Positions 625 to 44,380 of a stretch of 64,000 nucleotides of DNA are shown piece by piece. Position numbers and translations under genes: made by a program. The stretch is from a virus (lineage: Duplodnaviria > Heunggongvirae > Uroviricota > Caudoviricetes). The notes under the pieces are model-generated. The model saw only the letters and a list, made by a program, of their open reading frames with translations. It was not told where the DNA came from and did not search any database. The stretch lies in IMG/VR virus record IMGVR_UViG_3300034160_000140, one strand, 5' to 3'. Every line of letters starts with the position of its first letter. Position 1 is the first letter of the stretch.

Positions 625-1509
625 ATGACAAAGAAATATATTTTAGTGCTAATTGCTCTATCCAGTTTAGGCACTATATCGCAAGCTGATTATCAAATTA
701 GAATTCCAATTCAACAGGCAATCTCTTTCAAGGATGTTACTTCTGGGGGTGGATCAGGCGGTAGTGGCGGCAATGGTAATGGTGGCAGCAACGGTGGTGG
801 TGGATTAGTTTTTACTGACCCTACTATATTAGCTGCTTATGAGGAAAAGTGTGGAGCATTTCCTAACAAAATAAATCCGTTGGCTGATCCTATACGAGAC
901 TATGACATTAGTTGTGGTGATTATTCAAATAGAGATCTTTCTGGTTATGTGCTTGATAAAACAGGTATGCTTTTTACTAATTTTGCAAATTCAATATTAG
1001 ATGGAGCTATATTAGGTGATTCTAGCTTGGCTAACAGTAATCTATCAGGAGCATCCTTAATAGGTGCTCAGTTTACCGTAAATGGCGAAAGCACTACATT
1101 AACGAATGCTGATATTAGTAATGCTAACTTAACAAATGCTTATATGAACAAATCATATTTAGAAAAAACTAATTTTACTGACTCTAATTTAACAGGTGCT
1201 GTATTAACTAACACTAGTTTTGTTGGTGCAAACTTGAAAAATGCTAACTTAACGAATACTAATTTTGACACTTCCTATGTTATTGATACGAATTTTACTA
1301 GTTCAAATTTTACAGGAGCCACATTAACTAATACTGCATTTATTAATACTAATTTTACTAACGCAAATTTGATTGGAGCTGATCTCAGCACCAGTGCGTT
1401 CAGCAATGTTGATTTCACTAATATCTTGTATGATGCGACCACAAAATGGCCTTCATGGTACACACCACCACAATCTAGTAATGGATATCAGTTCACACCG
1501 CAATGGTAA
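625..1509 (+). CDS. secreted pentapeptide-repeat protein; Gly-rich linker; N-terminal module shared with the secreted modular family
   Basis: Signal peptide ...ISQA/DYQIRIP; GGGSGGSGGNGNGG linker; long run of A(D/N)LxN/SxxNLTGA pentapeptide repeats (seen directly); GAGG Shine-Dalgarno site. Confidence 0.6.
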   Translation: MTKKYILVLIALSSLGTISQADYQIRIPIQQAISFKDVTSGGGSGGSGGNGNGGSNGGGGLVFTDPTILAAYEEKCGAFPNKINPLADPIRDYDISCGDYSNRDLSGYVLDKTGMLFTNFANSILDGAILGDSSLANSNLSGASLIGAQFTVNGESTTLTNADISNANLTNAYMNKSYLEKTNFTDSNLTGAVLTNTSFVGANLKNANLTNTNFDTSYVIDTNFTSSNFTGATLTNTAFINTNFTNANLIGADLSTSAFSNVDFTNILYDATTKWPSWYTPPQSSNGYQFTPQW

Positions 1510-1688
1510 GAAAAAGATTGACAAATTTGAAAAAGTGTTGTCTAAAACAACAACCAAAATGATTGAGATCTTCAATTATCAACCATTTTGAATAAGGCAT
1601 TTTAACCAAATGTCTTATTTTTTTGTCTTAAGTTGCGTTGTTGAACCTTTTGGGCTAAAATATTTTTAAATTAACATGGGACTTTCTA

Positions 1689-2144
1689 ATGATTTTAACT
1701 ATCGAACTTGTACCTAAATCTTGCTGGTTTTCTAACTTGCGAGATCACCTCACGGAAGCACAATGGAAAGAAGTCAAGCTTAGCACATTTAAGGCTGCAG
1801 ATAATCGTTGTGAAATCTGTCATGGTGTTGGGGATAAGTGGCCGGTAGAATGCCATGAGGTTTGGGAATATGACGATATCAATAAGGTACAGCGTCTGGC
1901 AAGAACTGTTGCTCTTTGCCCATCATGTCATCAAGTTAAGCATATAGGTATGGCGATGGTTACTGGTCGTTACAATCATGCAAAATCACATTTCTCAGCT
2001 ATCAATAAAGTCCCTATGAGACAAGCAGAACGCTATATTGATAAAGCCTTCAACTTGTTTAATGACCGATCAAAGTTTGAATGGACACTAGACATTTCTT
2101 GGATTAACCAAAACTTCGGATTCACTATTAAAGAAAAACGTTAA
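1689..2144 (+). CDS. zinc-finger HNH-like nuclease (putative)
   Basis: CEICHGVGDKWPVECHEVWEYDD...ALCPSCHQVKH has two CxxC pairs bracketing an H-x-H HNH-like core; family assignment from memory of the motif. Confidence 0.4.
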   Translation: MILTIELVPKSCWFSNLRDHLTEAQWKEVKLSTFKAADNRCEICHGVGDKWPVECHEVWEYDDINKVQRLARTVALCPSCHQVKHIGMAMVTGRYNHAKSHFSAINKVPMRQAERYIDKAFNLFNDRSKFEWTLDISWINQNFGFTIKEKR

Positions 2145-2206
2145 TATATTGACTTTTTAAAGACTTTAAATAAACTATAGTAATAACATTTTGGAGTATT
2201 AGTATT

Positions 2207-2491
2207 ATGTTTTTTTCTTTATTTTTAATATCTTATTTGATAGCAAGTTTAACATTAAGTATCGTTTATTATGACTATTATGCTGCATTTTATTTGGTTG
2301 CTGTTAATCTTATCATGATGATATTAATTATGAAAGATAGAATCTTTGTTAATTTATACAAAAAATTAGAGAAAAAAGATCCTTCTATTTCAATAGGTCT
2401 AGGCATTTTTCAGTGTGTCTACATGATTTTAATTTTGCCTATTCTTTTCTTTAAAATCATGACAAGTATTGTTTCATATTTTGTTTCTTGA
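2207..2491 (+). CDS. small hydrophobic membrane protein
   Basis: GGAG Shine-Dalgarno site; several predicted TM segments. Confidence 0.4.
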   Translation: MFFSLFLISYLIASLTLSIVYYDYYAAFYLVAVNLIMMILIMKDRIFVNLYKKLEKKDPSISIGLGIFQCVYMILILPILFFKIMTSIVSYFVS

Positions 2492-2572
2492 TTAAAAAAA
2501 AATACGATATTGCTTGCCCCAAAATCATATTCTTGATAGAATAGTCTCATCAAAACCTAGAAGGTGATTGTT

Positions 2573-2806
2573 ATGACTATCCGTTCCCGTGAAGAAATGG
2601 CTCGAAAAGTTCAAATTGACCTCGGAGGTCAATCAGGAAATTCTTTTGCCCTTATGGCTATTGCCGAAAATATCGGTAAGCAACTGGGTGTTCCGAAAGA
2701 TGAGCGTGATTCTATTACCAAGGACATGATGTCAAGTGACTACGAACATCTGGTTGCCACACTGGAAAAGCATTACGGTGATTATATCGACATTTACGAG
2801 GTGTAA
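2573..2806 (+). CDS. hypothetical protein
   Basis: AGAAGGTGA Shine-Dalgarno site then ATG at 2573; terminator downstream. Confidence 0.5.
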   Translation: MTIRSREEMARKVQIDLGGQSGNSFALMAIAENIGKQLGVPKDERDSITKDMMSSDYEHLVATLEKHYGDYIDIYEV

Positions 2807-2905
2807 TCTATTTTTTAGTGTGGTTTTCACTTAAAAATGATAGCCACACTCATAAAACTCTGTTATAATACATCTACACAATCAGCAAGAGCAAGGATAT
2901 AAATC

Positions 2906-3229
2906 ATGTTCCCTCATTCAATCGTCACTGCCGATGTCATCAAGGTTGACTACGACTCAGCTAAGTTCGTGGTTGATGGGAAAAATGGAAAAGAAGAAGT
3001 GGCTACACGCTTTTTCTGCACCATCCTTGTTCGGGGTGGTTTCATCTTCCGCCATACCAGTCAACTGCTGGATGAGGTAACCGCCTCCAATGTCACCGAA
3101 AAGATTTACTCCCATGTCTTCAATGACAAGGGCACTGTAAATATGAAATTTTGGCAAGAATACCAATCGACATCCAGCACGCCACTGCTTGAAAAAATGC
3201 AGCTTGAAGCTCATCTCGAAACAGCGTAA
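2906..3229 (+). CDS. hypothetical protein
   Basis: AAGGATATAAATC-ATG; intergenic boundaries. Confidence 0.5.
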   Translation: MFPHSIVTADVIKVDYDSAKFVVDGKNGKEEVATRFFCTILVRGGFIFRHTSQLLDEVTASNVTEKIYSHVFNDKGTVNMKFWQEYQSTSSTPLLEKMQLEAHLETA

Positions 3230-3281
3230 ACTACTACTTCTTTGGGAGTGTTAAACTCCCACATCTCTTTTAAGGATTACC

Positions 3282-3680
3282 ATGACACAAGTTACTCAGC
3301 TAGAACGCGAAGTTATCTCCAGTATTGCAAAACTGGGCTATCGTTCAGTCAAGACCTCCGAAATTCACACCATTTCTGACATCATTAAAAAAGCACAAGT
3401 GAATGCCGTTCTGTTGAACTTGAAACGGAAAGGCATGGTTACTATTATGGTTGATGGCATTGCTTCGCTTACCGTCCAAGGGCTTAACTCTTTCAACACC
3501 AACTATGGTGAGCAAGCCATTTCTGATGTTCAAAGTGCTCATAATGCTAAAATGCTCTTTGGTCGCCCGATGAGCCGTAATGAATTGACATTTGTGAACA
3601 AGTGCATCGACATTCGTAATCAGGGTGTCAAAGTAGGTAAAACCATCAAAGGGATTAAGGTATGGCTCAACCGCCGTTAA
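3282..3680 (+). CDS. putative winged-helix DNA-binding protein (paralog of 59039..59551)
   Basis: N-terminus VTQLEREVISSIAKLG...QVNAVLLNLKRKGMV aligns with VTALETAVIVNIVALG...QVNAVLLNLKGKGLV at 59039; terminator 3700-3727. Confidence 0.5.
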   Translation: MTQVTQLEREVISSIAKLGYRSVKTSEIHTISDIIKKAQVNAVLLNLKRKGMVTIMVDGIASLTVQGLNSFNTNYGEQAISDVQSAHNAKMLFGRPMSRNELTFVNKCIDIRNQGVKVGKTIKGIKVWLNRR

Positions 3681-3699
3681 TTTGACGGTTACTGTAAAA

Positions 3700-3727
3700 A
3701 AAGAGAAGCTTAGGCTTCTTTTTTTTG
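3700..3727 (+). terminator. rho-independent terminator
   Basis: agaagcttaggcttct hairpin followed by a T8 run. Confidence 0.7.
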
Positions 3728-3815
3728 TACATTTTGTTTATACATTTTGTTAAGTCATATAATTGACACATATGAAATTACTTGTATTATAGTATTAACA
3801 ATAATAATAAAAATC

Positions 3816-4760
3816 ATGTACATTAAAAAATTGCTCTTAGTTCCTGCACTTTCATTGTTAGGAATGAATTCTTTCGCAGAATATCAAATACAATATCCAG
3901 ATGTTCCCGTTATCTTTAAAGATCTTGGTAAATGGGTTCCGGCTAATCCTATAATCTCTACTTGGGTTAATGTAGGCACTCCACATGATTGTCAAAGTGC
4001 TTCGCCACTTGAGAACACACAACAACTGGGTTTGTCATATGAAAAAACATTTTCAGGCTGCAAACAAGCACAAGAAAGAACTGTAACTACTTCTGAAAAA
4101 CAGACGTTTACAGGTGCTGTTCGTAATCAAGTGAGCACAAAAGAAACACAAGTGTTAACTAATGCTAGTTATAAAGTTAATTCTATTGGAACTACTGATT
4201 TTGGTCAATGGTTACAAACTGCTCCAGTTTATACAGGTTGGGTAAATCTTGAATCTCCACATGATTGTACAAGTGCTATACCACTTGAAAATACACAAAC
4301 ACTTAATTCAACTTATGTAAAAACATTTTCTGGTTGCACACAGTCACAGGAACGCACTGTCACAACTTCTGAAAAGAATACTGTTACAGGTGTTGTTCGT
4401 AACGTAGTTAATACTAAGGAAAATCAAGTTCTCACTAATGTAACTTATACTGCAAATGCAATAGGAACAAAGGTTGTTAAAGAATGTGGTTACTCAGCAG
4501 TCAGTGGACATGCTTACAGATGGTATGATATTGCCACTTATGATGGTTATACAACTACTTATGGAATGGGGTTACAATGGGATGGTTCTACTAAAATTGA
4601 TACCACAAACATTAGTAAGACTTACCCTAAAGCAGCAACTTTTGTGAATGGTGGTTATACTTATACTCGCGGTGCATTTAAAGAAAAAGGTTCACATTAT
4701 GACGGTCTACGTTCATACTATTATTACTATGAAGTGTGTAGAGAACCAATTGCACCATAA
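3816..4760 (+). CDS. secreted modular-family protein with two tandem Cys-pair repeat domains
   Basis: Signal peptide ...MNSFA/EYQIQYP; internal ~85-aa repeat WVN.G.PHDC.SA.PLENTQ...FSGC.Q.QERTVTTSEK..TG.VRN.V.TKE.QVLTN occurs twice; C-terminal YYYEVCREP tail shared by the family. Confidence 0.6.
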   Translation: MYIKKLLLVPALSLLGMNSFAEYQIQYPDVPVIFKDLGKWVPANPIISTWVNVGTPHDCQSASPLENTQQLGLSYEKTFSGCKQAQERTVTTSEKQTFTGAVRNQVSTKETQVLTNASYKVNSIGTTDFGQWLQTAPVYTGWVNLESPHDCTSAIPLENTQTLNSTYVKTFSGCTQSQERTVTTSEKNTVTGVVRNVVNTKENQVLTNVTYTANAIGTKVVKECGYSAVSGHAYRWYDIATYDGYTTTYGMGLQWDGSTKIDTTNISKTYPKAATFVNGGYTYTRGAFKEKGSHYDGLRSYYYYYEVCREPIAP

Positions 4761-4886
4761 TTGAAAAACAAAAAGAAGCTTCGGCTTCTTTTTTCTTGCT
4801 TAAAATAAGATTTTTAGGTATAATGACCTTATTGAAATCCACTATAAATATTGCCGAAAGGCATACTTTTAAAACGGAATATTAAC

Positions 4887-5387
4887 ATGACAGAAACTAC
4901 AGCAGAATATCAGAAAATCCGCAGTGATGTGCTCAGCCACCTTCGCCGGAAAGGTTACTACACCCAACCCAGTGTTCGGGCGTATCCTGTCACCATTCAA
5001 GTCCTTAAAGATTTGATTGCAGAACGATTGGTTACTGAGAATGAGCAATACACTGGTAGTCAACGGTTGTTTAATTCCACTGATCTGATGCCTTCGACGG
5101 TGGTGGTTCGTAAGCAGTTTGTTCAAAATCTCAAAGCTGGTAATTATTTTGGTCATTCTGGTGAGTTTGTTTCTGCTTTGAATGAACGCTTTGATGAAGT
5201 TAATAACAAAAGCTTTTTAAAAGTGGGTGTTGTTGCCGCTGTTGAAGTCAAATACATACCTAAGAACTTATGGGAAAAGCTGATTGGTCATAAGACTGAG
5301 CAGGCTGTTTTCATTACTTTGAATGATGGTAAAATCATCAAAACATTTTACAACAACATTTACCAAGTTGTTCGCACTCACCCCTAA
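4887..5387 (+). CDS. hypothetical protein
   Basis: ATG at 4887 (the track's 4851 is a TTG start); start uncertain. Confidence 0.45.
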   Translation: MTETTAEYQKIRSDVLSHLRRKGYYTQPSVRAYPVTIQVLKDLIAERLVTENEQYTGSQRLFNSTDLMPSTVVVRKQFVQNLKAGNYFGHSGEFVSALNERFDEVNNKSFLKVGVVAAVEVKYIPKNLWEKLIGHKTEQAVFITLNDGKIIKTFYNNIYQVVRTHP

Positions 5388-5454
5388 ATAAAAGACTTGC
5401 CTGAAAACAAGATTTTTGCTAATATAGCGTTATCAAAATCAAGGAGTTACAAAC

Positions 5455-5859
5455 ATGCATCCAGTAGACGCCCAACTCATTAAAGACCACGGCAATGTTT
5501 CCGATGACTATGAGACTTGGGTTTCCAGTAACGGTGTCGATGACTTCGTTAAAACCGAATTTACGTGCGGCAATTGCTTCATGCTTGCTTTGGCACTCCA
5601 TTACAAAACTCAGTGGCCTATCAAGGCTAAAATGATTGATGGTGATGTTGTTCACTGCTACGTTGTGAACCCAGACGGTAAAGCGGTTGATATTTACGGT
5701 GTCCGTCCTACTGAACAGGCTCCGACTCGTTATGACGCGGACTTGACAGAAGGCTTCACGGTTATCGACGCTCGCCCAGAAACGCCTTGGCCTTCGAACA
5801 AAGACTACCAGTGGGCAGAAGAACTGGTAAGCAAGTTCCCGGCTCACTTCGGTCTGTAA
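5455..5859 (+). CDS. hypothetical protein
   Basis: CAAGGAG Shine-Dalgarno site; terminator 5868-5895. Confidence 0.5.
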   Translation: MHPVDAQLIKDHGNVSDDYETWVSSNGVDDFVKTEFTCGNCFMLALALHYKTQWPIKAKMIDGDVVHCYVVNPDGKAVDIYGVRPTEQAPTRYDADLTEGFTVIDARPETPWPSNKDYQWAEELVSKFPAHFGL

Positions 5860-5988
5860 TTCAATTTGTCAAAAGACGCCTTTCGAGGCGTTTTTTTCCT
5901 CTAACTCATCAAAATATTTAAAATAAGTGTTGTTCATCAGATTGTTATTCGGTATAATTCACACATTAACTAGAACGGAATAAATACT

Positions 5989-6273
5989 ATGCAAACCACT
6001 ATCAAGTTCAAAGAAAACGCTGACCAAACCAAACTGAAATCTATCAAGGTTTCCAGCGACCAATTCCATGAAATGTCGGATACTCAGCAAATCATGGTAG
6101 ACATTCGCCAGTTGGTATTGAAAACCGTTGATCAGACTGTTCCTGACTATGCTGATAAGTTGGTCATCGAAGACCTTGAAACGGCTGCAAACAAAATTCG
6201 TCTGCACTTCGTTGATATGCGTCAATACATGCTTAAAGACGAAGATTTGGCTGACAATAGCGATTACCTGTAA
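5989..6273 (+). CDS. hypothetical acidic protein
   Basis: ORF with own promoter-like TATAAT at ~5953. Confidence 0.45.
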   Translation: MQTTIKFKENADQTKLKSIKVSSDQFHEMSDTQQIMVDIRQLVLKTVDQTVPDYADKLVIEDLETAANKIRLHFVDMRQYMLKDEDLADNSDYL

Positions 6274-6310
6274 TCGCTTTTAACCCTCTCATTTTCTGTA
6301 TAGGTGTACT

Positions 6311-6835
6311 ATGAATCAGCCAGATATTCAACTTGTCACATCCAAAATCACCATGCTCTTGAAGGTTGTTGAAAATATCCAAGGCGTTAGTCTGAAAGGG
6401 TGTTTCTTGGACATTGCTAAATTGCGTGGCTTTTTGGCTGACTCTGATTATTCCAGTGCGTTGTCTTATGTTATCCATACACAAGAAACCATCGCAAGTT
6501 TCAAACCGCATTTGGACATTGTTCAGATTTTTGAAAAAATTGAACGATATCTTTTGATTAACCTGCTTTATTTTGAACGTTATTATCAACAAGATATGGC
6601 TTATATTGTTATTGATACTTACGAAGCAGTTTCTCGTTACTCTCGAGAGTTCCAACTGGCAATGGAATATGAAGATACAGAGATTAAACGCAAAGCATTG
6701 AACGAAGTGATTGAAGGTCTTCAGGCCGATCCCTTCAAAGGCAGTGACATGATTATCACGTTGATTAATCTTCTTCTGGATTCCAACGAACGAGTAGGTC
6801 CACTGCTGAGCCGTGTTAATAAGGATTTAGCTTAA
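6311..6835 (+). CDS. hypothetical protein
   Basis: TAGGTG Shine-Dalgarno site. Confidence 0.5.
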   Translation: MNQPDIQLVTSKITMLLKVVENIQGVSLKGCFLDIAKLRGFLADSDYSSALSYVIHTQETIASFKPHLDIVQIFEKIERYLLINLLYFERYYQQDMAYIVIDTYEAVSRYSREFQLAMEYEDTEIKRKALNEVIEGLQADPFKGSDMIITLINLLLDSNERVGPLLSRVNKDLA

Positions 6836-6941
6836 TATCATTGTCGAATAGATTGATTTTTTTATTCTAAAAACTTGTTTATGATAGGTGACAGTGTTAT
6901 AATTGTCTCTCTTAAACGAAATCAACCAAGGATACAAGACC

Positions 6942-7169
6942 ATGAAAGAATTGACCTCCTTCGAATTCTACAAAGCCCGTCAAGAACTGCCAGTCGGTGC
7001 TTATCGCGTTATTGAAGAAGATGAAACTGTCAGTATTGCAGTGGTTGAATCTCACGATATTAAATGGTTTGACGAAGACGAATATCTTGAAATTGAACGC
7101 CGCGAATGTGAAGATCGCATGTGGGCTAATGATGGCATGGACTTGATTTACGGCTGCGAAGAAGACTAA
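6942..7169 (+). CDS. hypothetical acidic protein
   Basis: AAGGATAC Shine-Dalgarno site then ATG at 6942 (the track start at 6903 has no Shine-Dalgarno site). Confidence 0.45.
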   Translation: MKELTSFEFYKARQELPVGAYRVIEEDETVSIAVVESHDIKWFDEDEYLEIERRECEDRMWANDGMDLIYGCEED

Positions 7170-7265
7170 TTTAAGAAACAAATTGAAAAAGCTCAGAAAT
7201 GGGCTTTTTTTTCGTCTCTAATACTGCTATACTTGCGTTATCAAAACTTATTAAGGAAAACATTC

Positions 7266-7898
7266 ATGTCGCTTACTCAAATCATTGAAGCTGTTCAGGC
7301 ATCTCAGAAAACCCAACAAGAAATCCGTTCACAGTTGCTGCCAGTTTCTGATGCTCAAACGGTGTTCTTTGATGATCAAGACACTACCATCTCTTTGCTG
7401 GAAATAGCCGAATCCCTGAGTTGTTCGGATGATTCTGGTTTGTCTGATAAAGCTGTTGACATGCGTGATGAAATTGTCGCTTTGTTGAAAGCTTATAATG
7501 ATGAAGTGGAAGAATGTGTTAAAGAAAATAGCACTTACAATGCCGGTATTCATGGCAAAGAACGTCTTGAAGTGCTGAACATGGAAAAAATTGTAGCGAC
7601 TGCTCAAGAAAAAGCATTGACCATGAAAGTGCAAATCAACACCCTCAAATTTACAGATGAACACATGAAGGCGTTCCGCGAAATTTATTTCGAACTCGGT
7701 GTTACTCACTTCTTGAAAGAAGAACTCCGTGATGTGATCTACTTCGACCCAAAAGTAAGCCCTTATCTGCGAGATCTTATTGCAGAACGCTTCTTGGTGC
7801 GGTTTCCTGACTATGTAAATCCAAAAGGTTATATGAATGTGACTTCCGTTGACTTCATTAACCACCTTGAACGTATTCAGAAGGCTGCTGTTAATTAA
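7266..7898 (+). CDS. family-A protein (1 of 4 paralogs, ~210 aa, conserved C-terminal LG.TH...D(I/V)(I/V)Y(F/Y)(D/N)P motif)
   Basis: C-terminus IYFELGVTHFLKEELRDVIYFDPK aligns with the same region of 8825, 32475 and 33244; AAGGAAA Shine-Dalgarno site; terminator 7919-7945. Confidence 0.55.
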   Translation: MSLTQIIEAVQASQKTQQEIRSQLLPVSDAQTVFFDDQDTTISLLEIAESLSCSDDSGLSDKAVDMRDEIVALLKAYNDEVEECVKENSTYNAGIHGKERLEVLNMEKIVATAQEKALTMKVQINTLKFTDEHMKAFREIYFELGVTHFLKEELRDVIYFDPKVSPYLRDLIAERFLVRFPDYVNPKGYMNVTSVDFINHLERIQKAAVN

Positions 7899-7984
7899 AA
7901 GAATACATGTATCAATTAAAGGGCTTCGGCCCTTTTTTTTATTTCTAATTTATGGTATATTACACGTCTTAATGGGAGATTTTT

Positions 7985-8221
7985 ATGTCAAATAATGGTT
8001 GGACAGAGGTTGTTCCACAAGAAGTTGGTTCATATTACTTCTATGGTGATATTTCGTTTAAAAAAGATGATCCAAATTTTAAAGCAGAACTTTCAATTTT
8101 ACACATCCATAAAATTTCGAATGGCATCATGCATGTGATTGCGGGTCAGTTCTTTTTTCCTGATGACAACGGTGGTTATGGTTTGTTTAAAAAAGTTGAT
8201 TTGGATCTTCCAAAGTTGTAA
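7985..8221 (+). CDS. hypothetical protein
   Basis: GGGAG Shine-Dalgarno site. Confidence 0.45.
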   Translation: MSNNGWTEVVPQEVGSYYFYGDISFKKDDPNFKAELSILHIHKISNGIMHVIAGQFFFPDDNGGYGLFKKVDLDLPKL

Positions 8222-8248
8222 GACGCATTTAACTTAGGAGTTATTGTT

Positions 8249-8743
8249 ATGTTAGAAGTCATTAAAAATTCTATGATTACAAGTTATTCAAGCATGTTAA
8301 AAACTCCTGATATGTCTTTGGTTATTGGCGATTTATCCAATAATGAGTTTGATATTGTTACTCTTGAAGAACTTTCCACGTTATTTGAAGAAGATAATGG
8401 TCAAGACTTGATGTTAGGGCTATTTGATCACGCAGTTGCAACAGATGTATTTAAGTTGTTTACAAGTGAAACTTATTTGAACGCATTAGAAGGTTCGGGT
8501 GATTTGGTGTTTGTTGGTCGCTATCATTTGGGTGAGCAAGACCTTATTATTTGGTCTGAAACCAATGCTACTGGTCAGGAATTACTTTCAGAACAGTTTG
8601 AAGTTCTTCATGATTTTATCTATATTTCTAGTTTTTTTGTGAATAAAGCTATGTTGGATGATAAAACAAATGAATTCAATGATAATTTCATTGAATGCCC
8701 TCAAATTAAAGAAGCTTTGTATAAAGTCATTCTTGACGAATAA
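8249..8743 (+). CDS. hypothetical acidic protein
   Basis: TAGGAG Shine-Dalgarno site. Confidence 0.5.
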   Translation: MLEVIKNSMITSYSSMLKTPDMSLVIGDLSNNEFDIVTLEELSTLFEEDNGQDLMLGLFDHAVATDVFKLFTSETYLNALEGSGDLVFVGRYHLGEQDLIIWSETNATGQELLSEQFEVLHDFIYISSFFVNKAMLDDKTNEFNDNFIECPQIKEALYKVILDE

Positions 8744-8824
8744 TGGTAATTTGAAAAAAAGCTGTTTAAAAATCAATTTTTTGTGCTATAATAGCTTCAC
8801 TTAAATATAAACAGGATTTTCCAA

Positions 8825-9457
8825 ATGAACGCCCAAAAAGCTCAACAACTCGCCAAAGATACCGCAGTTAAAATTGATAACCTTCAAGACAATCGGCTTC
8901 CGGTTGTTGAAGTTTTGGATATTTATGCCGAAGATGGTTTTGTGATCGGGTCTGCAGAAATCCTTGAAGCTTTCACCAAGTTCAATACTCAAAACCTTCC
9001 GAAACGAGTTGAAGAACTGAAAAAGTCGATTATTGCTTCCATGAACGAGATGAACAAGCTTGTTGAGGCAGAAAAGGCCAAAGTGACCTTGCATAACCAA
9101 AAGATTGATTTGGAAGTGGGCAGCCTGACGGCCACTCTGTTGGACAACATCCGTGATGTGCCTGAAAGCCGATTGACTCGAAAACTTCGGATTGGTAAAA
9201 AAATCATTTCAGAAGCGGATCAGCCACTTTTGAAAGAAGCTTATCGAAACCTTGGATTCAAACATATCTCCATTGAACCAATCAGTGACTATATCTACTT
9301 TGATCCAGAAGCTGATGAAATCCGTCAACCGTTTCTGAGAGAGTTTCATCGTCTGACTGATAACAAATATCCTTCACTCAGTCAGTATGTTCAATATGAT
9401 AATTCTCGGATTGAAAATATGGATGTGCTGTTGCATGTGGTTGGACTGAACACCTAA
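8825..9457 (+). CDS. family-A protein (paralog 2 of 4)
   Basis: AYRNLGFKHISIEPISDYIYFDPEADEIRQPF motif. Confidence 0.55.
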   Translation: MNAQKAQQLAKDTAVKIDNLQDNRLPVVEVLDIYAEDGFVIGSAEILEAFTKFNTQNLPKRVEELKKSIIASMNEMNKLVEAEKAKVTLHNQKIDLEVGSLTATLLDNIRDVPESRLTRKLRIGKKIISEADQPLLKEAYRNLGFKHISIEPISDYIYFDPEADEIRQPFLREFHRLTDNKYPSLSQYVQYDNSRIENMDVLLHVVGLNT

Positions 9458-9593
9458 TCAGTCATTATGTAGTAAAAGGGGCTTCTGCTCCTTTTTGCAT
9501 TTTTCCGTAATATAATACAGTTTTTGTTGATAGTTTTTTGTGTTTGGTGTATAATCAGGTTTCTTTCTTAAAACATATTTTTTGGAGTTTCAC

Positions 9594-10118
9594 ATGGCTA
9601 ATAAAACAATCAAGGCAACATTGATTATCGAAGACAAAAACATTAGTGTTGACGAACTCAACGATCTGTTTTCCGGTGCGACCAACAAGATCAAAGGATT
9701 GAGCTTCTTGCTCAGGGATCAAGCCCACAAAGCAAATACGCTCTGTAAATATCTGTTGACGGCGATTAAGGATGATAAATCAGCCGCCATCGAAATTGAC
9801 GAAATCGACATGCCAAAGTCGCTGCCTGCCATTGTGAAGCTGGCCGCAAAAGTCGGTAACAAAATTGACCCTGCTGTTTACCGTGAACCCCACGATATTT
9901 TCTGCCGAGAGCTTGAAAAAGCAGATGTTGTTTATGTTTGCACTCATTTCTTGGGCATGAAACTGTTTGTCACTCGTATGGAAGATACGAAAGGCGAGCA
10001 AAAAGGGCGTCACAACAAAGAATGGCTCGAAAACTTTGTTGATATTAACTTCAACAAAGATCGTAAAGGCTTGTGCCTTGATGTAAGTGCGGTTTTCCTG
10101 AGTTCTCAACCCGAGTAA
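9594..10118 (+). CDS. hypothetical protein
   Basis: TTGGAG Shine-Dalgarno site then ATG at 9594; terminator 10155-10180. Confidence 0.5.
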   Translation: MANKTIKATLIIEDKNISVDELNDLFSGATNKIKGLSFLLRDQAHKANTLCKYLLTAIKDDKSAAIEIDEIDMPKSLPAIVKLAAKVGNKIDPAVYREPHDIFCRELEKADVVYVCTHFLGMKLFVTRMEDTKGEQKGRHNKEWLENFVDINFNKDRKGLCLDVSAVFLSSQPE

Positions 10119-10154
10119 TTGGTTGACGATTTTTTCAAAAAACTGTATAATCAA

Positions 10155-10180
10155 GGAGATCTTCGGATCTCCTTTTTTTT
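10155..10180 (+). terminator. rho-independent terminator (UUCG tetraloop)
   Basis: ggagatcttcggatctcc followed by T8. Confidence 0.75.
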
Positions 10181-10192
10181 GAGATTAAAATT

Positions 10193-10657
10193 ATGAACTT
10201 ACAACTTAGACACCGTTGTCTTCAGTTTGAAACGGAAGGGACTATTGTTTACGACCCCGACCGTGGAACCATGAAGAAAAACATTGAACATTGGGCTGTT
10301 ATCACGATAGAACCGGATATCGCGGCCTACTATCGCCATCAGTTTTATCAACGGTATGGTATCGAGTTGGATAAACCTAACTGGGATGTTCATTGCTCAG
10401 TGCTGAAAGGGTATACCAATACAGATACATCTAAGCCGTGGGGCTGGCTTGACCAACAACCTGTTGAACTGCATTACACCCATGAATTGTTCTGGAATGA
10501 TTCGCATGTGTGGATAAACTGTTATTCAGCCGAGTTTTTCAAAATTCGTGAATACTATAACGTGTTGGGCACAGACCAAGGCCATATCACTATTGGGAAG
10601 TTTAAGCATTATCAAAAAGACAGGCTAAAACCCTTCAAAAACTACGTTCCAGATTGA
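10193..10657 (+). CDS. hypothetical protein
   Basis: GAGA Shine-Dalgarno site; own promoter ctgTATAAT at ~10143. Confidence 0.5.
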   Translation: MNLQLRHRCLQFETEGTIVYDPDRGTMKKNIEHWAVITIEPDIAAYYRHQFYQRYGIELDKPNWDVHCSVLKGYTNTDTSKPWGWLDQQPVELHYTHELFWNDSHVWINCYSAEFFKIREYYNVLGTDQGHITIGKFKHYQKDRLKPFKNYVPD

Positions 10658-10705
10658 TTTATTTCTAAGTTTTTGCTATAATCAAAGCCTACTTGGAGTG
10701 TTCCC

Positions 10706-11077
10706 ATGATCAAACAAATTAAAGACAGCGTTCCTAATGAACTCTCGGAAGAATACCTGTCTCCAAAATCTATTTTTCTGGCGGTCGCTTTGTGGCGAAC
10801 GTTTGGCGGTGAAATCCAAATTCGCACGGAAGATGATTTGTCGATAAAAAATATCGAACATGCGTGGCTGTCTCTGGATGGTTGCCAAATCGACATTGAT
10901 GGAGCTTATCCACCTATCGTAGCACTTGATGAAAGTGATGAAGACCTTGTGTTAGGTTTAGACGAAACCACGGCCCTTGAGTTTGTGAGAACACTCGTTG
11001 AAATCAGTGATAAAGAATGGGAAAAAGAAGTTAAAAAAGCCATTAAAATTGTTAAACGTTGCTATATTGAGGAATAA
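10706..11077 (+). CDS. hypothetical acidic protein
   Basis: TTGGAG Shine-Dalgarno site; promoter tgcTATAAT at ~10673. Confidence 0.5.
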   Translation: MIKQIKDSVPNELSEEYLSPKSIFLAVALWRTFGGEIQIRTEDDLSIKNIEHAWLSLDGCQIDIDGAYPPIVALDESDEDLVLGLDETTALEFVRTLVEISDKEWEKEVKKAIKIVKRCYIEE

Positions 11078-11079
11078 AA

Positions 11080-11502
11080 ATGATCATTCTTTTGCAAATT
11101 ATGCTGTTGCGATTGTTCATTTTCATGAAGTTGAAAACAGAGGTCGAGTTTTCATACTTGAACACTGATTTTTTCAGGCGAGTAGGTTGTCGGATTAAAT
11201 TTAACAGAACAACCAGCCAACCTGTTATTCATCCTTCATCTGGCAAGGTGTTGTATTATAAATATGATCATAACTCCTTGACGATTACTCTTTTTAAAGG
11301 TGGCATGGTGGTTGACCACTGGAAAGGTGATAAATTGTATACTTATCACAGTGTTGACTTCCAGTCATTGAACTCATCAAGTGCTTTTGTTAAAATTAGA
11401 TACATGAGTTCGTTTTATGTAAAATTTGTGGAAACGATTTTACACACCATGCAAAAAAAAGATGAAAAAGTGCTTGAACTCGACGTAAAAAATTCTGTAT
11501 AA
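11080..11502 (+). CDS. hypothetical protein (weak call)
   Basis: Start abuts the previous stop; GAGG Shine-Dalgarno site; unusual hydrophobic N-terminus. Confidence 0.3.
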   Translation: MIILLQIMLLRLFIFMKLKTEVEFSYLNTDFFRRVGCRIKFNRTTSQPVIHPSSGKVLYYKYDHNSLTITLFKGGMVVDHWKGDKLYTYHSVDFQSLNSSSAFVKIRYMSSFYVKFVETILHTMQKKDEKVLELDVKNSV

Positions 11503-11637
11503 TAACCACTCACTTGGGCTGAAAAGCCCTTCGTATAAAGCTTCATCGCAAGTGCTAAGTAGCAGAGAACAATAACAAAACCTGCCTATTGAATACGACA
11601 AAACTGCCGATATTTATTCTCAGACAGGAGATTCACC

Positions 11638-11790
11638 ATGCTTAAAACCAAACGTATGCTTTTATTATTCCTTGCCTTGGGCTTTACTGGGGGTGGGGAT
11701 CACCATCAACACCATGACCGATCACCTTCGCAATCTAAGGTTCGTCGGTGGTCTTCACTGCACTACAAAAACAAACATTCGCAGCATTAA
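11638..11790 (+). CDS. small His-rich peptide with signal-like N-terminus (50 aa)
   Basis: Strong Shine-Dalgarno site cAGGAGattcaccATG; MLKTKRMLLLFLALGFTGGG then DHHQHHD; not in the >=60-aa ORF track. Confidence 0.3.
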   Translation: MLKTKRMLLLFLALGFTGGGDHHQHHDRSPSQSKVRRWSSLHYKNKHSQH

Positions 11791-11804
11791 ATCTAATTTT
11801 TCTG

Positions 11805-11833
11805 TTGTATCTAAGCCAAATACTTGGTATAAT
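11805..11833 (+). promoter_or_regulatory. sigma70-type promoter (TTGTAT-17-TATAAT with TG extension) for the lipoprotein gene
   Basis: ttgtat...cttgGTATAAT. Confidence 0.5.
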
Positions 11834-11842
11834 TAACCCATC

Positions 11843-11884
11843 GAAGCAGCAAGGGGCGAGCAACCCAATAAGCCTTTCCCCTTG
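11843..11884 (+). promoter_or_regulatory. conserved structured 5'-leader element (copy 1)
   Basis: gaagcagcaaggggcgagcaacccaataagcctttccccttg is ~85% identical to 41178-41219; inverted repeat caagggg/ccccttg. Confidence 0.5.
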
Positions 11885-11927
11885 CGATTGCTCATTCGAC
11901 CTTAATTGAAACGAGAAGGATACGACC

Positions 11928-18022: not shown

Positions 18023-18042
18023 TTTTGTCAATACGATTAAAG

Positions 18043-18068
18043 ACCTAGCTTCGGCTAGGTTTTTTTGT
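18043..18068 (+). terminator. rho-independent terminator (copy of 17493-17517)
   Basis: Identical agacctagcttcggctaggt followed by T7. Confidence 0.75.
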
Positions 18069-20002: not shown

Positions 20003-20470
20003 TTAAAGGTTAGGATAGCGGCATATTTTATAGTAGTTATACTTGGTATCAGCTCTATTAAATGATCCTAATACATAAGTGTATTGACCAGAAACAAATG
20101 GAAAATACTTATTTTGTGTGTATACGCTATCAATCAATATGGCATTAGACCATTTGATATATCTAATCATTCCTGTTGGATAAGGTTTTGATGTATTAAA
20201 TGTCATTGCATAGTTAGAACTTTCTGAATAGTTTTGGCATGTATAACCTGCCCTATCTTCGTCCTTTGGTGGCACTGGTGGTTCAGGAATTACAGGGACT
20301 TCTGGCTCAGGCGGTATTGGTGGTGTTTCTGGATTTGTAGGCGGTTTGATCTTTGAAAATACGATGTCACCTTCATTTAAGTGAGCTTTTGGATGAATGA
20401 CCACTTGATAACTTGCATTCGCTATTGTTGTTACAGCCAATAAAGAGGCTATCATTATTATTTTTTTCAT
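20003..20470 (-). CDS. secreted modular-family protein (Pro-rich linker variant)
   Basis: Signal peptide ...TIANA/SYQVVIHP; PETPPIPPEPEVPVIPEPPVPP linker; C-terminal ...YNYYKICRYPNL family tail. Confidence 0.55.
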   Translation of the reverse strand: MKKIIMIASLLAVTTIANASYQVVIHPKAHLNEGDIVFSKIKPPTNPETPPIPPEPEVPVIPEPPVPPKDEDRAGYTCQNYSESSNYAMTFNTSKPYPTGMIRYIKWSNAILIDSVYTQNKYFPFVSGQYTYVLGSFNRADTKYNYYKICRYPNL

Positions 20471-32391: not shown

Positions 32392-32474
32392 CTTTCAATA
32401 AATGTTGTTTTTGTCTTCGGATAATGTTACAATGTCGGCACGATTAAAGAATCTTTCAACTTATGGTGAACTTG

Positions 32475-33119
32475 ATGAATCTGACTTATGAAGAACTTCA
32501 AACTTTGACCACTGCCTACAAATCAGCGAAAGAAGAGTTGGGTAAAAAATTGGTGAGCTTGCCTGCAAGCACAAAAGTCTATAACCCAGCTACTCAGACA
32601 GAATCGAGCCTCTTTGACATTCTTCGTGCTATGAATGACGATGTTATGCCAGAAGAAGTAAAACCCGCTCACGAAGCCGCTCTACAAGCTTTGTTGACCT
32701 TTCAAAACCTCATGAATGAAAAGATTTATGAAGCCAAGGCCAACAACTACACGGTAAGCATGGCTATTAGAAACTTGCATTCGGAATACCTTAAAGCTAC
32801 TGACATTCCAGAACGTTTGCTTTCAGCCGTCTTGTTGGTTAACAAGAAAAATATTGCAGAAGCCGACCACTCTATTCTGGTGGATATTTATAAATCATTG
32901 GGACTGACGCATTACTCCACCCATACTGCCCGTGACATCGTATATTACAATCCAGCCCAGCTTGATTTGGACGGTTTGAAAAATATGGTTGTCATGAATT
33001 CACCTTCACTGTTTCAACACAATTACCCCAACTTTTGGGATAACATGACGGGTGAATACGTTGATGCGGACCCTTTGACGGCTTGTATGTTGATGGTTTT
33101 TAATGCACGAAAAGCTTAA
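32475..33119 (+). CDS. family-A protein (paralog 3 of 4)
   Basis: IYKSLGLTHYSTHTARDIVYYNPAQL; N-terminus MNLTYEELQTLTTAYKSAKEEL parallels 33244 MTLTVEDVKKLTADFQAAKQEL. Confidence 0.55.
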   Translation: MNLTYEELQTLTTAYKSAKEELGKKLVSLPASTKVYNPATQTESSLFDILRAMNDDVMPEEVKPAHEAALQALLTFQNLMNEKIYEAKANNYTVSMAIRNLHSEYLKATDIPERLLSAVLLVNKKNIAEADHSILVDIYKSLGLTHYSTHTARDIVYYNPAQLDLDGLKNMVVMNSPSLFQHNYPNFWDNMTGEYVDADPLTACMLMVFNARKA

Positions 33120-33243: not shown

Positions 33244-33891
33244 ATGACATTGACTGTTGAAGACGTAAAAAAACTGACGGCTGATTTTCAAGCAGCAAAG
33301 CAAGAACTTCAAGCAAAAATTCAACGTGCCCCTGACTCTCCTGATATTTGGGATGAAGATCATGAAGAAAGTTCCTCATTGGCTGATCTTATTCGTGGTT
33401 TGAATACCGACACCATGCCGCCTGCTGCATTGGCAATGCAAGAACAGCTTATTGCTGACCTTGAAGTTTTCGGTAACGCTATCAATAGCAAAATTTCCGA
33501 AGTTTCAATTCATAACACCCGTATTCAGCTTGAAATTGAAAAGCTGACCAAAGACTTCTTGGCCGCTATTCGCGTTCCTGAGAGCGATTTGGGAGCCGCA
33601 TTGCTCATCAACAAGAAAATCATCGACCCTCTTGATTATGAGGCTCTGGTGTCGGTGTATCGTGAGCTGGGCTTTACCAACTTTGAAATCAAAGCTCAAA
33701 AAGACATTGTGTATTACAACCCAGACATTAAGCATTTCAACACCTTGAAGGACGAAATCTTCGAGGCTTTCCCGAAAGACTTTCGTAAAAAATATCCAAC
33801 ATTCTTGAACTTTATTCAAAACAGTATTGTCCGCACCAATCCTGTTTATGGGCATGGACTCATTCAAGTAATGGAAGCACGCCAAGTATAA
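33244..33891 (+). CDS. family-A protein (paralog 4 of 4)
   Basis: VYRELGFTNFEIKAQKDIVYYNPDIK. Confidence 0.55.
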   Translation: MTLTVEDVKKLTADFQAAKQELQAKIQRAPDSPDIWDEDHEESSSLADLIRGLNTDTMPPAALAMQEQLIADLEVFGNAINSKISEVSIHNTRIQLEIEKLTKDFLAAIRVPESDLGAALLINKKIIDPLDYEALVSVYRELGFTNFEIKAQKDIVYYNPDIKHFNTLKDEIFEAFPKDFRKKYPTFLNFIQNSIVRTNPVYGHGLIQVMEARQV

Positions 33892-41219: not shown

Positions 41220-41261
41220 TTAATGCTTACTCATCATAATCAGTTAAAAAGGATACAAAAC

Positions 41262-41396
41262 ATGCAAGGTTCTTTCGGTGACGCAGTAGAACGTTTTCGC
41301 GGCGGCAAGAAAAAAGACAATGAACAAGCAAAGTTCCACAAAAAAGATAACGAGTTTCGGAATAAACGCCGGAATCGTCATCAAGACGCAGAGTAA
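41262..41396 (+). CDS. small Lys/Arg-rich protein (44 aa), copy 1 of 4
   Basis: MQGSFGDAVERFRGGKKKDNEQAKFHKKDNEFRNKRRNRHQDAE; AAGGATAC Shine-Dalgarno site; ~93% nucleotide identity to 48141..48275. Confidence 0.5.
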   Translation: MQGSFGDAVERFRGGKKKDNEQAKFHKKDNEFRNKRRNRHQDAE

Positions 41397-41714: not shown

Positions 41715-41735
41715 GCCTATTATTTGAGGAAATTT

Positions 41736-42523: not shown

Positions 42524-42554
42524 TTATTAAGAAAAATAATCGGAGTTTGAACTA

Positions 42555-42887
42555 ATGAAAACTAATGCACCATTTAATTTAACTATTAAATTCATGCAAT
42601 ATGGAGTTAATCCAGAAGCTGATCAATATGTTCATCAATGTTATTTTAATGCTGATGGCTCTATTGTAAAGCTTTCCCCTGACATGTCTGATCGGCCTGA
42701 TGAAATCTTCTTTGCAGTCGAAACAAAACATGGTTGGAAAAAGATTGAAAATCGTGATTTGGTTGTATTAGAAAATGGTAAACCTTATGTATATCCGCTG
42801 GCTCTTTTTTTGTCAAATCCACCTGTGGTATATGAAACACCTAAATCTAAAAGTTACGGCCTTTTTGGTTTGGTTATCGTGGATTAG
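42555..42887 (+). CDS. hypothetical protein (paralog of 42957..43238)
   Basis: FMQYGVNPEADQYVHQCYF...GWKKIENRDLVVLENGK aligns with FQYGTDPEAAEHVHQCYM...GWQRIEDGDFVVLKNGE. Confidence 0.5.
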   Translation: MKTNAPFNLTIKFMQYGVNPEADQYVHQCYFNADGSIVKLSPDMSDRPDEIFFAVETKHGWKKIENRDLVVLENGKPYVYPLALFLSNPPVVYETPKSKSYGLFGLVIVD

Positions 42888-42956
42888 TCGATCAATATTT
42901 TTACAAAAAATAAAGTTTATGTTATAATCGTTATCACAATTTATATGAGAGACATT

Positions 42957-43238
42957 ATGAAGAATTATAAAAGTAAAGAAATTGTTGAATGTCAAGCCTT
43001 TCAGTATGGCACTGACCCAGAAGCTGCAGAACATGTTCATCAATGCTATATGGGCTATGAAAACAAAGTTGTCAAGGTTCCCGGTGATATGATGGGAACA
43101 CCTAAAAATGCATTTTTCGGTGTGAAAACTAATGATGGCTGGCAACGCATTGAAGACGGTGACTTTGTTGTCCTGAAAAATGGCGAAAAACTGGTGGTGC
43201 CTTACTCGGTATTCAAACTCACTTTCTCGGAAGTTTAA
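42957..43238 (+). CDS. hypothetical protein (paralog of 42555..42887)
   Basis: See 42555; GAGAGA Shine-Dalgarno site; promoter tgTTATAAT at ~42918. Confidence 0.5.
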   Translation: MKNYKSKEIVECQAFQYGTDPEAAEHVHQCYMGYENKVVKVPGDMMGTPKNAFFGVKTNDGWQRIEDGDFVVLKNGEKLVVPYSVFKLTFSEV

Positions 43239-43263
43239 AAAATCCTTTTTTGGAGTTGAAATT

Positions 43264-43434
43264 ATGCAAGGTTATATGGTTTATGCGTGGGATCAGTATT
43301 ATCCGACAACCGCTGACAAGCAAGTGAAAGGTGTTTTTCTTGACGAAGTAAAGGCAGAAGCCTTGAAAAAGGAACTTGAGTCATCAGGTCATTACAACTA
43401 CGTTGAATGCGAGCCTATTCCTATCATTGAATAA
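43264..43434 (+). CDS. hypothetical small protein (56 aa)
   Basis: TTGGAG Shine-Dalgarno site then ATG 43264; terminator 43470-43500. Confidence 0.4.
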   Translation: MQGYMVYAWDQYYPTTADKQVKGVFLDEVKAEALKKELESSGHYNYVECEPIPIIE

Positions 43435-43513
43435 GATCTCAGCTAACTTCGATCATATTAGGATATGAATAACAAAACCCCATTCTTGGGGTTTTGTTTG
43501 TGTGTTATATAGT

Positions 43514-44380
43514 TTAGTTAACTTGGCAAACTTGATATCCGCCTGATTGATATGGCCCACGTCTGTATAGTTTACCATCAGTTCCTCTTACATCTGGATA
43601 GTTAGTTAAGTAGTCTGGATTGACATAATTTCTATATACAACATTACCTTGCCATAAAACAGTTAATTCTGTAATGTAACCTTCATCTTCTTGATAACCC
43701 CATTCATAAGAACTCCATGCGAAGTTACATACTGTCGCTGGTTTTGTTCCAATACTTGTTCTGGTTGATGTGGTTGTAATGGATTGATTTTCAATAGTCG
43801 ATGATCCTACATTTCTTATCACATTTGTGGTTGTTTCTTGTTCACGATTTTGTTTGCTACGAGTTTGAGGTTGCTTACAATCCGTTGCAGTTTGTGTGAA
43901 TGATTGACCAGATGTGACCGTTGATGTGGCTGGACTCCAGTTCGTGCAGCTTGTTACAGCCCCACTATTAACCCATGTTGTGACATCAGCAGCAATCGCC
44001 ACCCATGTTTCTAATGTGCCTACAGCACTCCGTGTTTGAGTTGTGTTAATACTTTGGGATTCATTGTAAGGATTTCCAATGTTACGAATACTGCCTGAAA
44101 CATTATCAACTTCTCGATCTTGCACTGTTCTGGTTTGATCTTGCTTACAGTCGTTTGCTGTTTGTGTAAACGTATTTCCGATGGTTATTGCAGATACTGC
44201 AGGACTCCAATTTAAACATGAATGCACACTTCCTGTGTTTTCCCAATCGCCATACAATGGAGAATTTGCAGTCCAACTGGCAAATCTTACTGGTTCATCT
44301 AAGTTAAATTTAACAATATATTCAGCTTGTATTATGCCACCAGCTAATGCCAGCGTTAATGATAGTAATGTTTTTTTCAT
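43514..44380 (-). CDS. secreted modular-family protein with two Cys-pair repeat domains
   Basis: Signal peptide ...GGIIQA/EYIVKF; two copies of W.N(T/S)G.V.SC.NWSP..S....G..FTQTA.DCKQ.QTR..Q.RE; C-terminal ...GGYQVCQVN tail. Confidence 0.6.
   Translation of the reverse strand: MKKTLLSLTLALAGGIIQAEYIVKFNLDEPVRFASWTANSPLYGDWENTGSVHSCLNWSPAVSAITIGNTFTQTANDCKQDQTRTVQDREVDNVSGSIRNIGNPYNESQSINTTQTRSAVGTLETWVAIAADVTTWVNSGAVTSCTNWSPATSTVTSGQSFTQTATDCKQPQTRSKQNREQETTTNVIRNVGSSTIENQSITTTSTRTSIGTKPATVCNFAWSSYEWGYQEDEGYITELTVLWQGNVVYRNYVNPDYLTNYPDVRGTDGKLYRRGPYQSGGYQVCQVN

Follow-up and report, generated by a model that had tools for sequence, protein, structure and literature searches.

The 64,000-nucleotide (nt) stretch of the IMG/VR virus record IMGVR_UViG_3300034160_000140 (this whole stretch is called the window below) raises the question of whether eight of its genes, four dispersed and four in a tandem array, are versions of one exported protein, how they came to differ, and what such proteins might do for the element that carries them. 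The eight genes encode exported proteins of common parts, arranged in the order of signal peptide, short N-terminal beta-hairpin (N-module), spacer variable in kind and length, and usually a C-terminal head, and the module comparisons support a single modular family. Module anatomy, homology, mosaicism and distribution could be demonstrated. The family is uncharacterised yet widespread, its design being of the known "anchor-stalk-head" type. We read its members as Sec-exported, disulfide-stabilised "stalk-and-head" binding proteins, tethered in a Gram-negative-type envelope and encoded on a very large mobile element, and we give this reading about an even chance of being correct.

Modules shared by the eight genes

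A Sec-type signal peptide is predicted in all eight genes from an N-terminus of the form MKK-hydrophobic-A-x-A, with cleavage sites assigned by a simple rule. The mature protein starts in every case with (D/E/S/N)-Y-x-(I/V)-x-(Y/I/F), followed a few residues on by (I/V)-x-F, and this N-module lies directly behind the predicted A-x-A site in all eight. A two-Cys domain (CD) of ~88 amino acids (aa) was found in five of the genes, in seven copies, and is missing from 625, 20003 and 61668 (genes are named here by their first coordinate); a C-terminal head domain (CTD) of ~70-95 aa was found in seven, the exception being 625..1509. All-against-all comparison of the open reading frames (ORFs) of the window joined 3816..4760, 43514..44380, 61022..61633, 61668..62075, 62144..62770 and 62866..63489, with 20003..20470 joined weakly and 625..1509 not joined by BLAST.

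Module profiles made solely from homologues outside the window were then searched against its 650 stop-to-stop ORFs. The CTD profile (87 outside representatives; pattern C...W...W.G...GYxYxRG...Y..CR.P) found exactly seven of them, the weakest being 20003 (expectation value, E, 3e-7) and 43514 (E 1.3e-6), and noise started with the next ORF at E 0.78. In the CTD alignment both Cys and Y65 of the GYxY motif are invariant, and Y63 and the Arg after the last Cys nearly so. The CD profile (pattern W..P.Y..W.N.G....C..W.P......G..F.QT...C.Q.Q.R....RE, with both Cys conserved in at least 90% of sequences) found two copies each in 3816 (E 3e-19 and 2e-19) and 43514 (E 3e-29 and 2e-26) and a single copy each in 61022, 62144 and 62866 (about 1e-47; best over the family 3e-49); there was no further match in the six-frame window, the next standing at E 0.5. 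Profile-profile alignment by hhalign linked the CTD of the tandem genes to that of the 3816 type (P 1e-8), and the latter to that of the 20003 type (P 6e-7). The C-terminal tail that the original prediction had seen in 3816, 20003 and 43514 was recovered by the CTD profile, for 3816 and 20003 also by hhalign, and its absence from 625 was confirmed. Narrow profiles of the tandem type had missed the CTDs of 3816, 20003 and 43514 (E 0.2-7) as well as the N-modules of the dispersed genes, so broader profiles were required.

For the N-module, an aromatic-x-hydrophobic-x-hydrophobic pattern occurs at the predicted mature start of 81 of 120 outside representatives, against 3.9% of random internal positions. 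With a 20-position profile from 44 outside proteins, 625..1509 came out at the top of the window ORFs (E 0.004, residues 22-38), and the top 11 included seven family members; hhalign against the outside N-module profile gave P 3.8e-6 for 625 with its orthologue, 3.6e-6 for the 3816 type and only 0.01 for the 20003 type. One profile that pooled heterogeneous N-modules found nothing significant among the window ORFs, the module being too short for it. By profile, the module is well supported in 625, 3816, 43514 and the tandem genes; with so short a module, the sequence match is convincing collectively, and for 625 and 3816, and weak for 20003 by itself. Position and pattern agree in all eight, as the claim of a common N-terminal module had implied. 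A derivation of the N-module as a remnant of CD or CTD was considered and rejected (hhalign P 0.4-0.8).

The shared motifs might also be ascribed to the compositional bias of AT-rich coding, the genes then being unrelated or ordinary paralogues. The N-module is indeed a short stretch in which I, Y, K and N abound, and its heterogeneous profile was insignificant. However, profiles built only from outside sequences pick out the family members among 650 ORFs that have the window's own base composition, and the hits are therefore not compositional; profile-profile P values run from 1e-8 to 4e-6, and module-specific identities conflict with a single gene tree. This explanation is almost certainly wrong. 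The same profile-profile comparison had been put forward at the outset as the way to unmask such bias, and both the N- and the C-terminal modules withstood it; the module profiles likewise bore out eight members of one family, at coordinates and with quoted sequences that were correct.

No match to the family was found in Pfam, PHROGs, NCBIfam or PADLOC, and a PDB sequence search was empty; N-module, CD and CTD are represented neither in Pfam 2025 or NCBIfam 2026 nor in PHROGs, PADLOC or PDB. Seven of the eight genes lack any PHROGs match, and 625 matches only pentapeptide families of unknown function. The sorting signals T9SS (type IX secretion system) CTD, GlyGly-CTERM and PEP-CTERM gave no match in Pfam (E up to 1) or NCBIfam (E up to 0.1). 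A weak match of CD to the thrombospondin type 1 repeat of Pfam (PF23260, TSP1_2) is a partial exception. That repeat resembles CD in being an elongated, disulfide-stapled extracellular unit with conserved Trp and Arg, and the CD core C..W.P...G..F.Q.R.C.Q.Q.R aligns to TSP1_2 positions 30-64 in the relatives P0222, P0213, P0103, P0107 and P0116. The cut-off of 27 bits was reached solely by whole-protein sums over many repeats in two relatives (38 and 30 bits); no single CD repeat exceeded it, one of 26 isolated CDs matched (E 0.02), and no window protein did. The resemblance is a lead rather than a sign of membership, as judged from these alignments.

Gene structure, duplication and exchange of modules

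The dispersed gene 625..1509 (plus strand) encodes the member with a pentapeptide-repeat head and neither CD nor CTD: signal peptide at aa 1-21 (nt 625-687), N-module DYQIRIPIQQAISFKDV at aa 22-38 (nt 688-738), Gly-rich linker at aa 39-61, pentapeptide repeats at ~aa 93-271, and the C-terminus ...NGYQFTPQW. The repeats are tandem A(D/N)LXX pentapeptides matching PF00805 in four stretches (96 bits against a cut-off of 20.2, E 8e-28); many NCBIfam models of the Qnr/PipB type also match, all under their equivalog cut-offs. With these repeats and the Gly-rich and Pro-rich linkers found as quoted, the variable middles were as originally claimed. A terminator (463-490) and a promoter-like site (493-521) lie upstream. 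The orthologue of this gene on a 1.86-Mb contig (L008) retains ADYQIRIPIQHAINF and the C-terminus. Just upstream of that orthologue, at 73-1101 of L008 (minus strand), is a further member of 342 aa with a signal peptide, the N-module KYEVIMGTVEVKF, one CD and another head of ~200 aa, for which a fibrinogen-like fold had been guessed and Pfam gave no match; the matching position lies beyond the left end of the window.

In 3816..4760 (plus strand), a two-CD member, the signal peptide (nt 3816-3878) and the N-module EYQIQYPDVPVIFKDLG (nt 3879-3929) are followed by CD1 (nt 3930-4193), CD2 (nt 4206-4478) and CTD (nt ~4470-4757), and an identical protein of 314 aa on record shows that the start is correct. 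The gene is a self-contained unit, with a terminator (3697-3726) and a near-consensus promoter-like site (3763-3790) ahead of it and a terminator (4770-4793) behind. The short member 20003..20470 lacks a CD and stands by itself on the minus strand between plus-strand neighbours, a two-way terminator lying at 19958-19984; its parts are signal peptide (nt 20470-20414), N-module SYQVVIHPKAHLNEGDIVFS (nt 20413-20354), Pro-rich linker (nt 20353-20255) and CTD (nt 20251-20006). The second two-CD member, 43514..44380, is likewise a lone minus-strand gene within a plus-strand array and has a hairpin terminator downstream (43471-43498); it comprises signal peptide (nt 44380-44324), N-module EYIVKFNLDEPVRFA (nt 44323-44279), CD1 (nt 44275-44015), CD2 (nt 44005-43742) and CTD (nt 43744-43517).

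The tandem array 61022..63489, on the minus strand, is made up of 61022..61633, 61668..62075, 62144..62770 and 62866..63489. In 62866, 62144 and 61022 the signal peptide is followed by an N-module of the form (S/N)Y.V.YGEKQING(D/E)NI.FV, one CD and the CTD; in 61668 a Gly/Ser/Pro linker takes the place between N-module and CTD. The gaps between these genes, 34-95 nt long, contain no ORFs, and the sole terminator is a two-way one past the last gene (60980-61007), with none between genes. The 150 nt upstream of each family member have 13-27% G+C, against 38% for the window. A reading of TATAAATA upstream of 61668 and 62144 as a T4 late promoter was rejected, as the other members lack it.

The two CDs of 3816 are sister copies with 62% aa and 73% nt identity, lying 276 nt apart (3962-4192 and 4238-4468), and a single-CD version of the gene exists (P0071); by its sequence, the pair is a lineage-specific intragenic duplication. 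In 43514, CD1 and CD2 fall into different position-specific clades, which correspond to the "first" and the "later" repeats of several proteins, so that this duplication is old. The intragenic duplication proposed for both genes accordingly stands for 3816 and falls, as a recent event, for 43514 with its old CD types.

A mosaic junction was located within 62144..62770 (62147..62635, minus strand). Its CD (nt 62635-62363) is closest to that of 61022, with 71% aa and 77% nt identity, while its CTD (nt 62362-62147) is closest to that of 62866, with 86% identity at both levels, against 37% aa identity to the CTD of 61022. The relatives tell the same story: P0013 and P0015 share 99% of the CD and 94% of the CTD but 48% of the signal peptide, and P0013 and P0005 share 100% of the signal peptide but 46% of the CD and 43% of the CTD. 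Overall, 10 signal-peptide, 9 CD and 9 CTD types occur in 23 combinations. These identities show real exchange of modules between paralogues, and the module shuffling originally suspected is borne out by the 62144 mosaic and the 23 type combinations.

A special diversification mechanism beyond ordinary paralogy had also been proposed, and for this the genes offer nothing. Repeat search at the family genes found no template/variable pair of the kind seen in diversity-generating retroelements and no inverted repeats, only the paralogous modules themselves, and no reverse transcriptase or recombinase was present among the window proteins scanned, which were part of the ORFs. The observations fit ordinary processes, in which genes duplicate, repeats are gained and lost, and tandem paralogues undergo homologous recombination.

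A conserved N-terminus, a variable recombining C-terminus and genes in tandem are also what would be expected of polymorphic toxins or bacteriocins, in which a conserved N-terminal part delivers a variable C-terminal toxin. No small immunity genes, however, lie between or after the tandem genes, the core residues of the CTD are conserved rather than swapped wholesale, and PADLOC, Pfam and NCBIfam gave no toxin match. We regard toxins as very unlikely, and the suggestion that the family might be secreted effectors was left unsupported.

Proposed stalk and head, and the N-module

The CD profile, searched against 1.84 billion cluster representatives, retrieved 720 proteins at E <=1e-3, each standing for a cluster at 50% identity; CD alone thus marks at least 720 clusters. 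Nearly all relatives examined consist of a signal peptide, the N-module, 1-24 CDs and a head, which is the CTD or another domain. The number of CDs is 0-4 in near homologues and reaches 24 in the wider family, and CD-less forms recur elsewhere (P0031-33, P0052-57). The other heads include FG-GAP and RCC1 propellers, Big_1 with invasin D3, S8 protease with He_PIG, and ChitinaseA_N; a sub-threshold F5/8 type C match marks one further candidate. The megaplasmid pMPPla107 encodes a 982-aa protein of signal peptide, N-module (NIIRTPAMI), ten CDs and CTD, annotated as hypothetical; a comparative paper on this plasmid family does not mention these proteins (PMC6482414).

The AlphaFold model of 62144 has an overall predicted local distance difference test score (pLDDT) of 83, with CD above 90, including strands of 23 and 17 residues, and CTD at about 88; the CTD of 3816 modelled alone is all beta (pLDDT 90.7, predicted template modelling score 0.80). 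The only structural resemblances of the CD model, all weak, are to the G5-E rod repeats of the staphylococcal proteins SasG and Aap, its only recurring structural neighbours; comparison with solved G5-E modules gave no significant fold match. In SasG/Aap, as proposed here for the family, a variable count of flat elongated beta repeats forms the rod by which an exported protein holds its binding domain off the cell, and repeat number differs between alleles.

In the stalk-and-head reading, the signal peptide would be cleaved at A-x-A, and the new N-terminus would be the beta-hairpin N-module of 17-25 aa, acting as a self-standing docking or tethering unit. The spacer, which would set the distance, would be either a rigid rod with CD repeated from a single copy to over 20 or a flexible linker rich in Pro or Gly; binding would be provided by the distal head, usually the small all-beta CTD with its Cys-Cys closure and elsewhere another binding or enzymatic domain. 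The set would diversify as genes are duplicated, CDs are gained or lost, and paralogues recombine homologously where modules meet. From such an anchor-spacer-head build it follows that the element would display heads of differing ligand specificity and reach at or near the cell surface. We infer that the proteins are exported and lose their signal peptide, that their Cys pairs form disulfides, that the N-module tethers them and that the head binds a ligand; an oxidising compartment is suggested by the conserved Cys of CD and the invariant Cys of CTD, and the window also encodes lipobox lipoproteins. An adhesin-like role, the better half of the original functional guess, would fit this architecture.

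That the N-module acts autonomously is argued from three observations: it is kept with any spacer and head, it sits at the new N-terminus, and a pilin replaces it twice. It is retained where flexible linkers stand instead of CDs (20003, 61668, P0031-33), where a pentapeptide beta-helix forms the head, as in 625 and its orthologue, and in P0105, P0194 and P0213 despite 500-700 residues ahead of the first CD. P0116 and P0140 begin with the N-terminal domain of a type IV pilin, a filament anchor (PRK10574, E 3e-9 and 9e-15), which replaces signal peptide and N-module before the CDs and CTD.

Several points weigh against the tethered stalk-and-head reading. The cleavage sites come from a simple rule; the N-module is modelled at low confidence (pLDDT 41-58 in AlphaFold 62144); the swap of pilin for N-module was seen in just 2 of 156 proteins examined; and the proteins could be soluble in the periplasm or released. 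In that last case they would be soluble binders, with the N-module serving as a folding cap or a signal for outer-membrane transport. Export and disulfides are equally compatible with this, an N-module partner was not detectable, and very large elements often encode many envelope-directed proteins, including at least five lipoproteins in the window. On the other side, members without CDs need no cap for a first CD and yet retain the N-module, a rigid stalk, with its up to 24 repeats, is most readily understood if one end is fixed, and relatives fused to pilin exist. We consider soluble proteins unlikely, although with a real share of the probability.

The position of the N-module, an alternating aromatic/hydrophobic strand at the very N-terminus of the mature protein like the N-terminal extensions of pilins, and its conservation over otherwise different paralogues also call to mind self-assembling fibres, in which this strand would insert into the head or CD of the next subunit by donor-strand exchange, the principle of chaperone-usher pili, and paralogues would co-polymerise. 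However, the models of CD and CTD are complete and of high confidence, with no strand missing, and the window cannot hold a chaperone/usher system, the usher being ~800 aa long and the longest ORF 377 aa; no such Pfam match was found. Fibre subunits are improbable on this evidence.

Among known systems, invasin and intimin resemble the family in that an anchor at the N-terminus is followed by repeated beta domains, which form a rod, and by a disulfide-closed C-terminal binding head; the relative P0117 combines CDs with Big_1 and invasin D3, and plasmid homologues are annotated as "Ig-like / invasin domain 3-containing". They differ in that the window family has no beta-barrel translocator, its anchor would be a hairpin of ~20 aa, and neither CD nor CTD is related to Big_1 or the C-type-lectin-like head.

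The PilV tip adhesins of IncI-type MPF_I thin pili, whose binding parts are exchanged by the shufflon, are alike in their constant N-terminal anchor, their alternative C-terminal binding parts and their location on conjugative plasmids, and the pilin-CD-CTD fusions P0116 and P0140 have the same look; both CD plasmids for which typing was read, pMPPla107 and pPABL048, are MPF_I. Unlike PilV, the window proteins carry A-x-A leaders of the signal peptidase I type and no prepilin leader, and their variation comes by separate paralogues and recombination rather than by site-specific inversion. On pPABL048 (NZ_CP039294.1; L017 7638-9537), a Big_1-CD-CTD ORF without a signal peptide of its own lies 150 nt behind a PilV-like prepilin gene, and two tyrosine-recombinase genes lie ~1.5 kb downstream; the arrangement could be a shufflon-like or cassette system for pilus-tip adhesins. 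A bolder, speculative proposal, which we hold to be distinctly unlikely, is that the N-module is a new N-terminal docking signal, a ~20-aa beta-hairpin laid bare when signal peptidase cuts, and that it plugs the repertoire of heads onto one shared structure at the surface, perhaps an outer-membrane protein or the type IV pilus of a conjugative element. If true, the family would be a "plug-in" adhesin set of very large mobile elements in which the number of CDs sets reach and the head sets specificity, and mosaic recombination would diversify the set as a paralogue-based counterpart of the PilV shufflon.

The element and its wider setting

A phage setting had been taken for granted in the original prediction, with its related phages and its tagging of proteins during infection, and this part did not hold. 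Family members had no homologue by tblastn among 50,697 phage records, nor did window positions 3000-12000 match the phage collection at the nucleotide level; PHROGs gave no support. Searches of P0063 against GTDB genomes and of 43514 against IMG/VR found nothing. At the same time, tblastn with 43514 detected the CD in 106 plasmid records, 92 of Pseudomonas, 13 of Vibrio and one of Stutzerimonas. The best-scoring records listed are of 0.3-1 Mb, and among the matches are pQBR103, the megaplasmid of Leaf58 and, from P. aeruginosa and P. putida, megaplasmids of ~0.3-0.6 Mb, pPABL048 being one; pMPPla107 (972 kb) has 22 matching places. When 15 other window proteins were joined and searched against plasmids, the only relatives were of SPFH and HNH proteins, so the element is not a close relative of pMPPla107.

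The logic of mosaic N-terminal anchor, shaft and tip is that of tail fibres, and the family might accordingly be virion fibres or decoration proteins of a giant phage, with N-terminal attachment, a variable shaft and a receptor-binding tip. The window does resemble a phage early region, with a pair of T4 Rnl1-like ligases and, before each small gene, a promoter and a Shine-Dalgarno site. However, assembly in the cytoplasm would not go with cleavable Sec signal peptides and conserved disulfide pairs, no virion-fibre PHROG matches, none of the phage records contains a homologue, and members with the full architecture reside on conjugative-type megaplasmids such as pMPPla107. We judge virion proteins highly improbable. 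Mosaic tail-fibre genes and phage "morons" are parallels in that N-terminal, shaft and tip modules are exchanged by recombination and in that each dispersed member forms a unit of its own with promoter and terminator, two of these units running against the genes around them. The differences are that the window proteins are exported and that homologues are absent from the phage records searched.

From these sequence matches, the family speaks for a megaplasmid-like biology and not for the infection cycle of a phage; the element itself may be either a giant phage or megaplasmid-like. The window has Shine-Dalgarno sites and TATAAT boxes ahead of nearly every small gene, as well as two tRNAs, and proteins identical or near-identical to its own are found on metagenome contigs of up to 1.92 Mb. 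The contigs of relatives (loci L003, L008, L004 and L001 among them) measure 1,917,244, 1,859,102, 1,843,594, 1,071,457 and 773,483 bp, and every stretch of them that was sampled is dense with small ORFs and almost devoid of Pfam matches. The largest phage genome in the literature consulted has 841 kb (10.1101/2025.01.14.633092). As phage genomes, these contigs would be more than twice that size; as plasmids, they would exceed every plasmid record in the present searches, pMPPla107 with its 972 kb included.

Additional features of the window were recorded. A promoter with leader, TTGAC-N17-TATAAT followed by the conserved CATCAAAACGAAAC, occurs in five copies (44635-44700, 48050-48115, 55777-55842, 58956-59021 and 60754-60819), and recurrent terminator-plus-promoter junctions, GCGGGTTTTTTGTT...TGGTATAAT, represent two repeat families. 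A 147-nt direct repeat (41250-41396 and 48129-48275; 90% identical, 6.9 kb apart), the second copy of which directly follows a conserved promoter, had no match in Rfam and may encode a small, very basic peptide. Paralogues of T4 RNA ligase 1/tail-fibre attachment catalyst with 26% identity lie 1 kb apart at 21645-22766 and 23733-24854, their best phage relative being that of the Ralstonia jumbo phage RsoM2USA (42%). The lipobox lipoproteins, at least five (25285-25931, 59650-59928, 11928-12266 and 19091-19945), include a small three-member paralogue family (25285, 25638 and 59650) and an SPFH/Band-7 lipoprotein with its closest relatives on 0.3-Mb Vibrio plasmids. Other paralogue families of unknown function are at 7266-7898, 8825-9457, 32463-33119 and 33244-33891, and at 3282-3680 and 59039-59551, with further scattered sites at 42555-43238, at 17582-18705, and at 55767-56004 and 60741-61128; no PHROGs match was found among those scanned.

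With those 22 places on pMPPla107 and eight genes per 64 kb here, the family is expanded on very large mobile elements, and its conserved N-terminal hairpin would be a candidate for a new tethering or sorting signal. If the proteins are indeed surface-tethered binders, they would be a main route by which such elements alter how the surface of their hosts behaves, with consequences for adhesion, aggregation, mating contacts and receptor masking.

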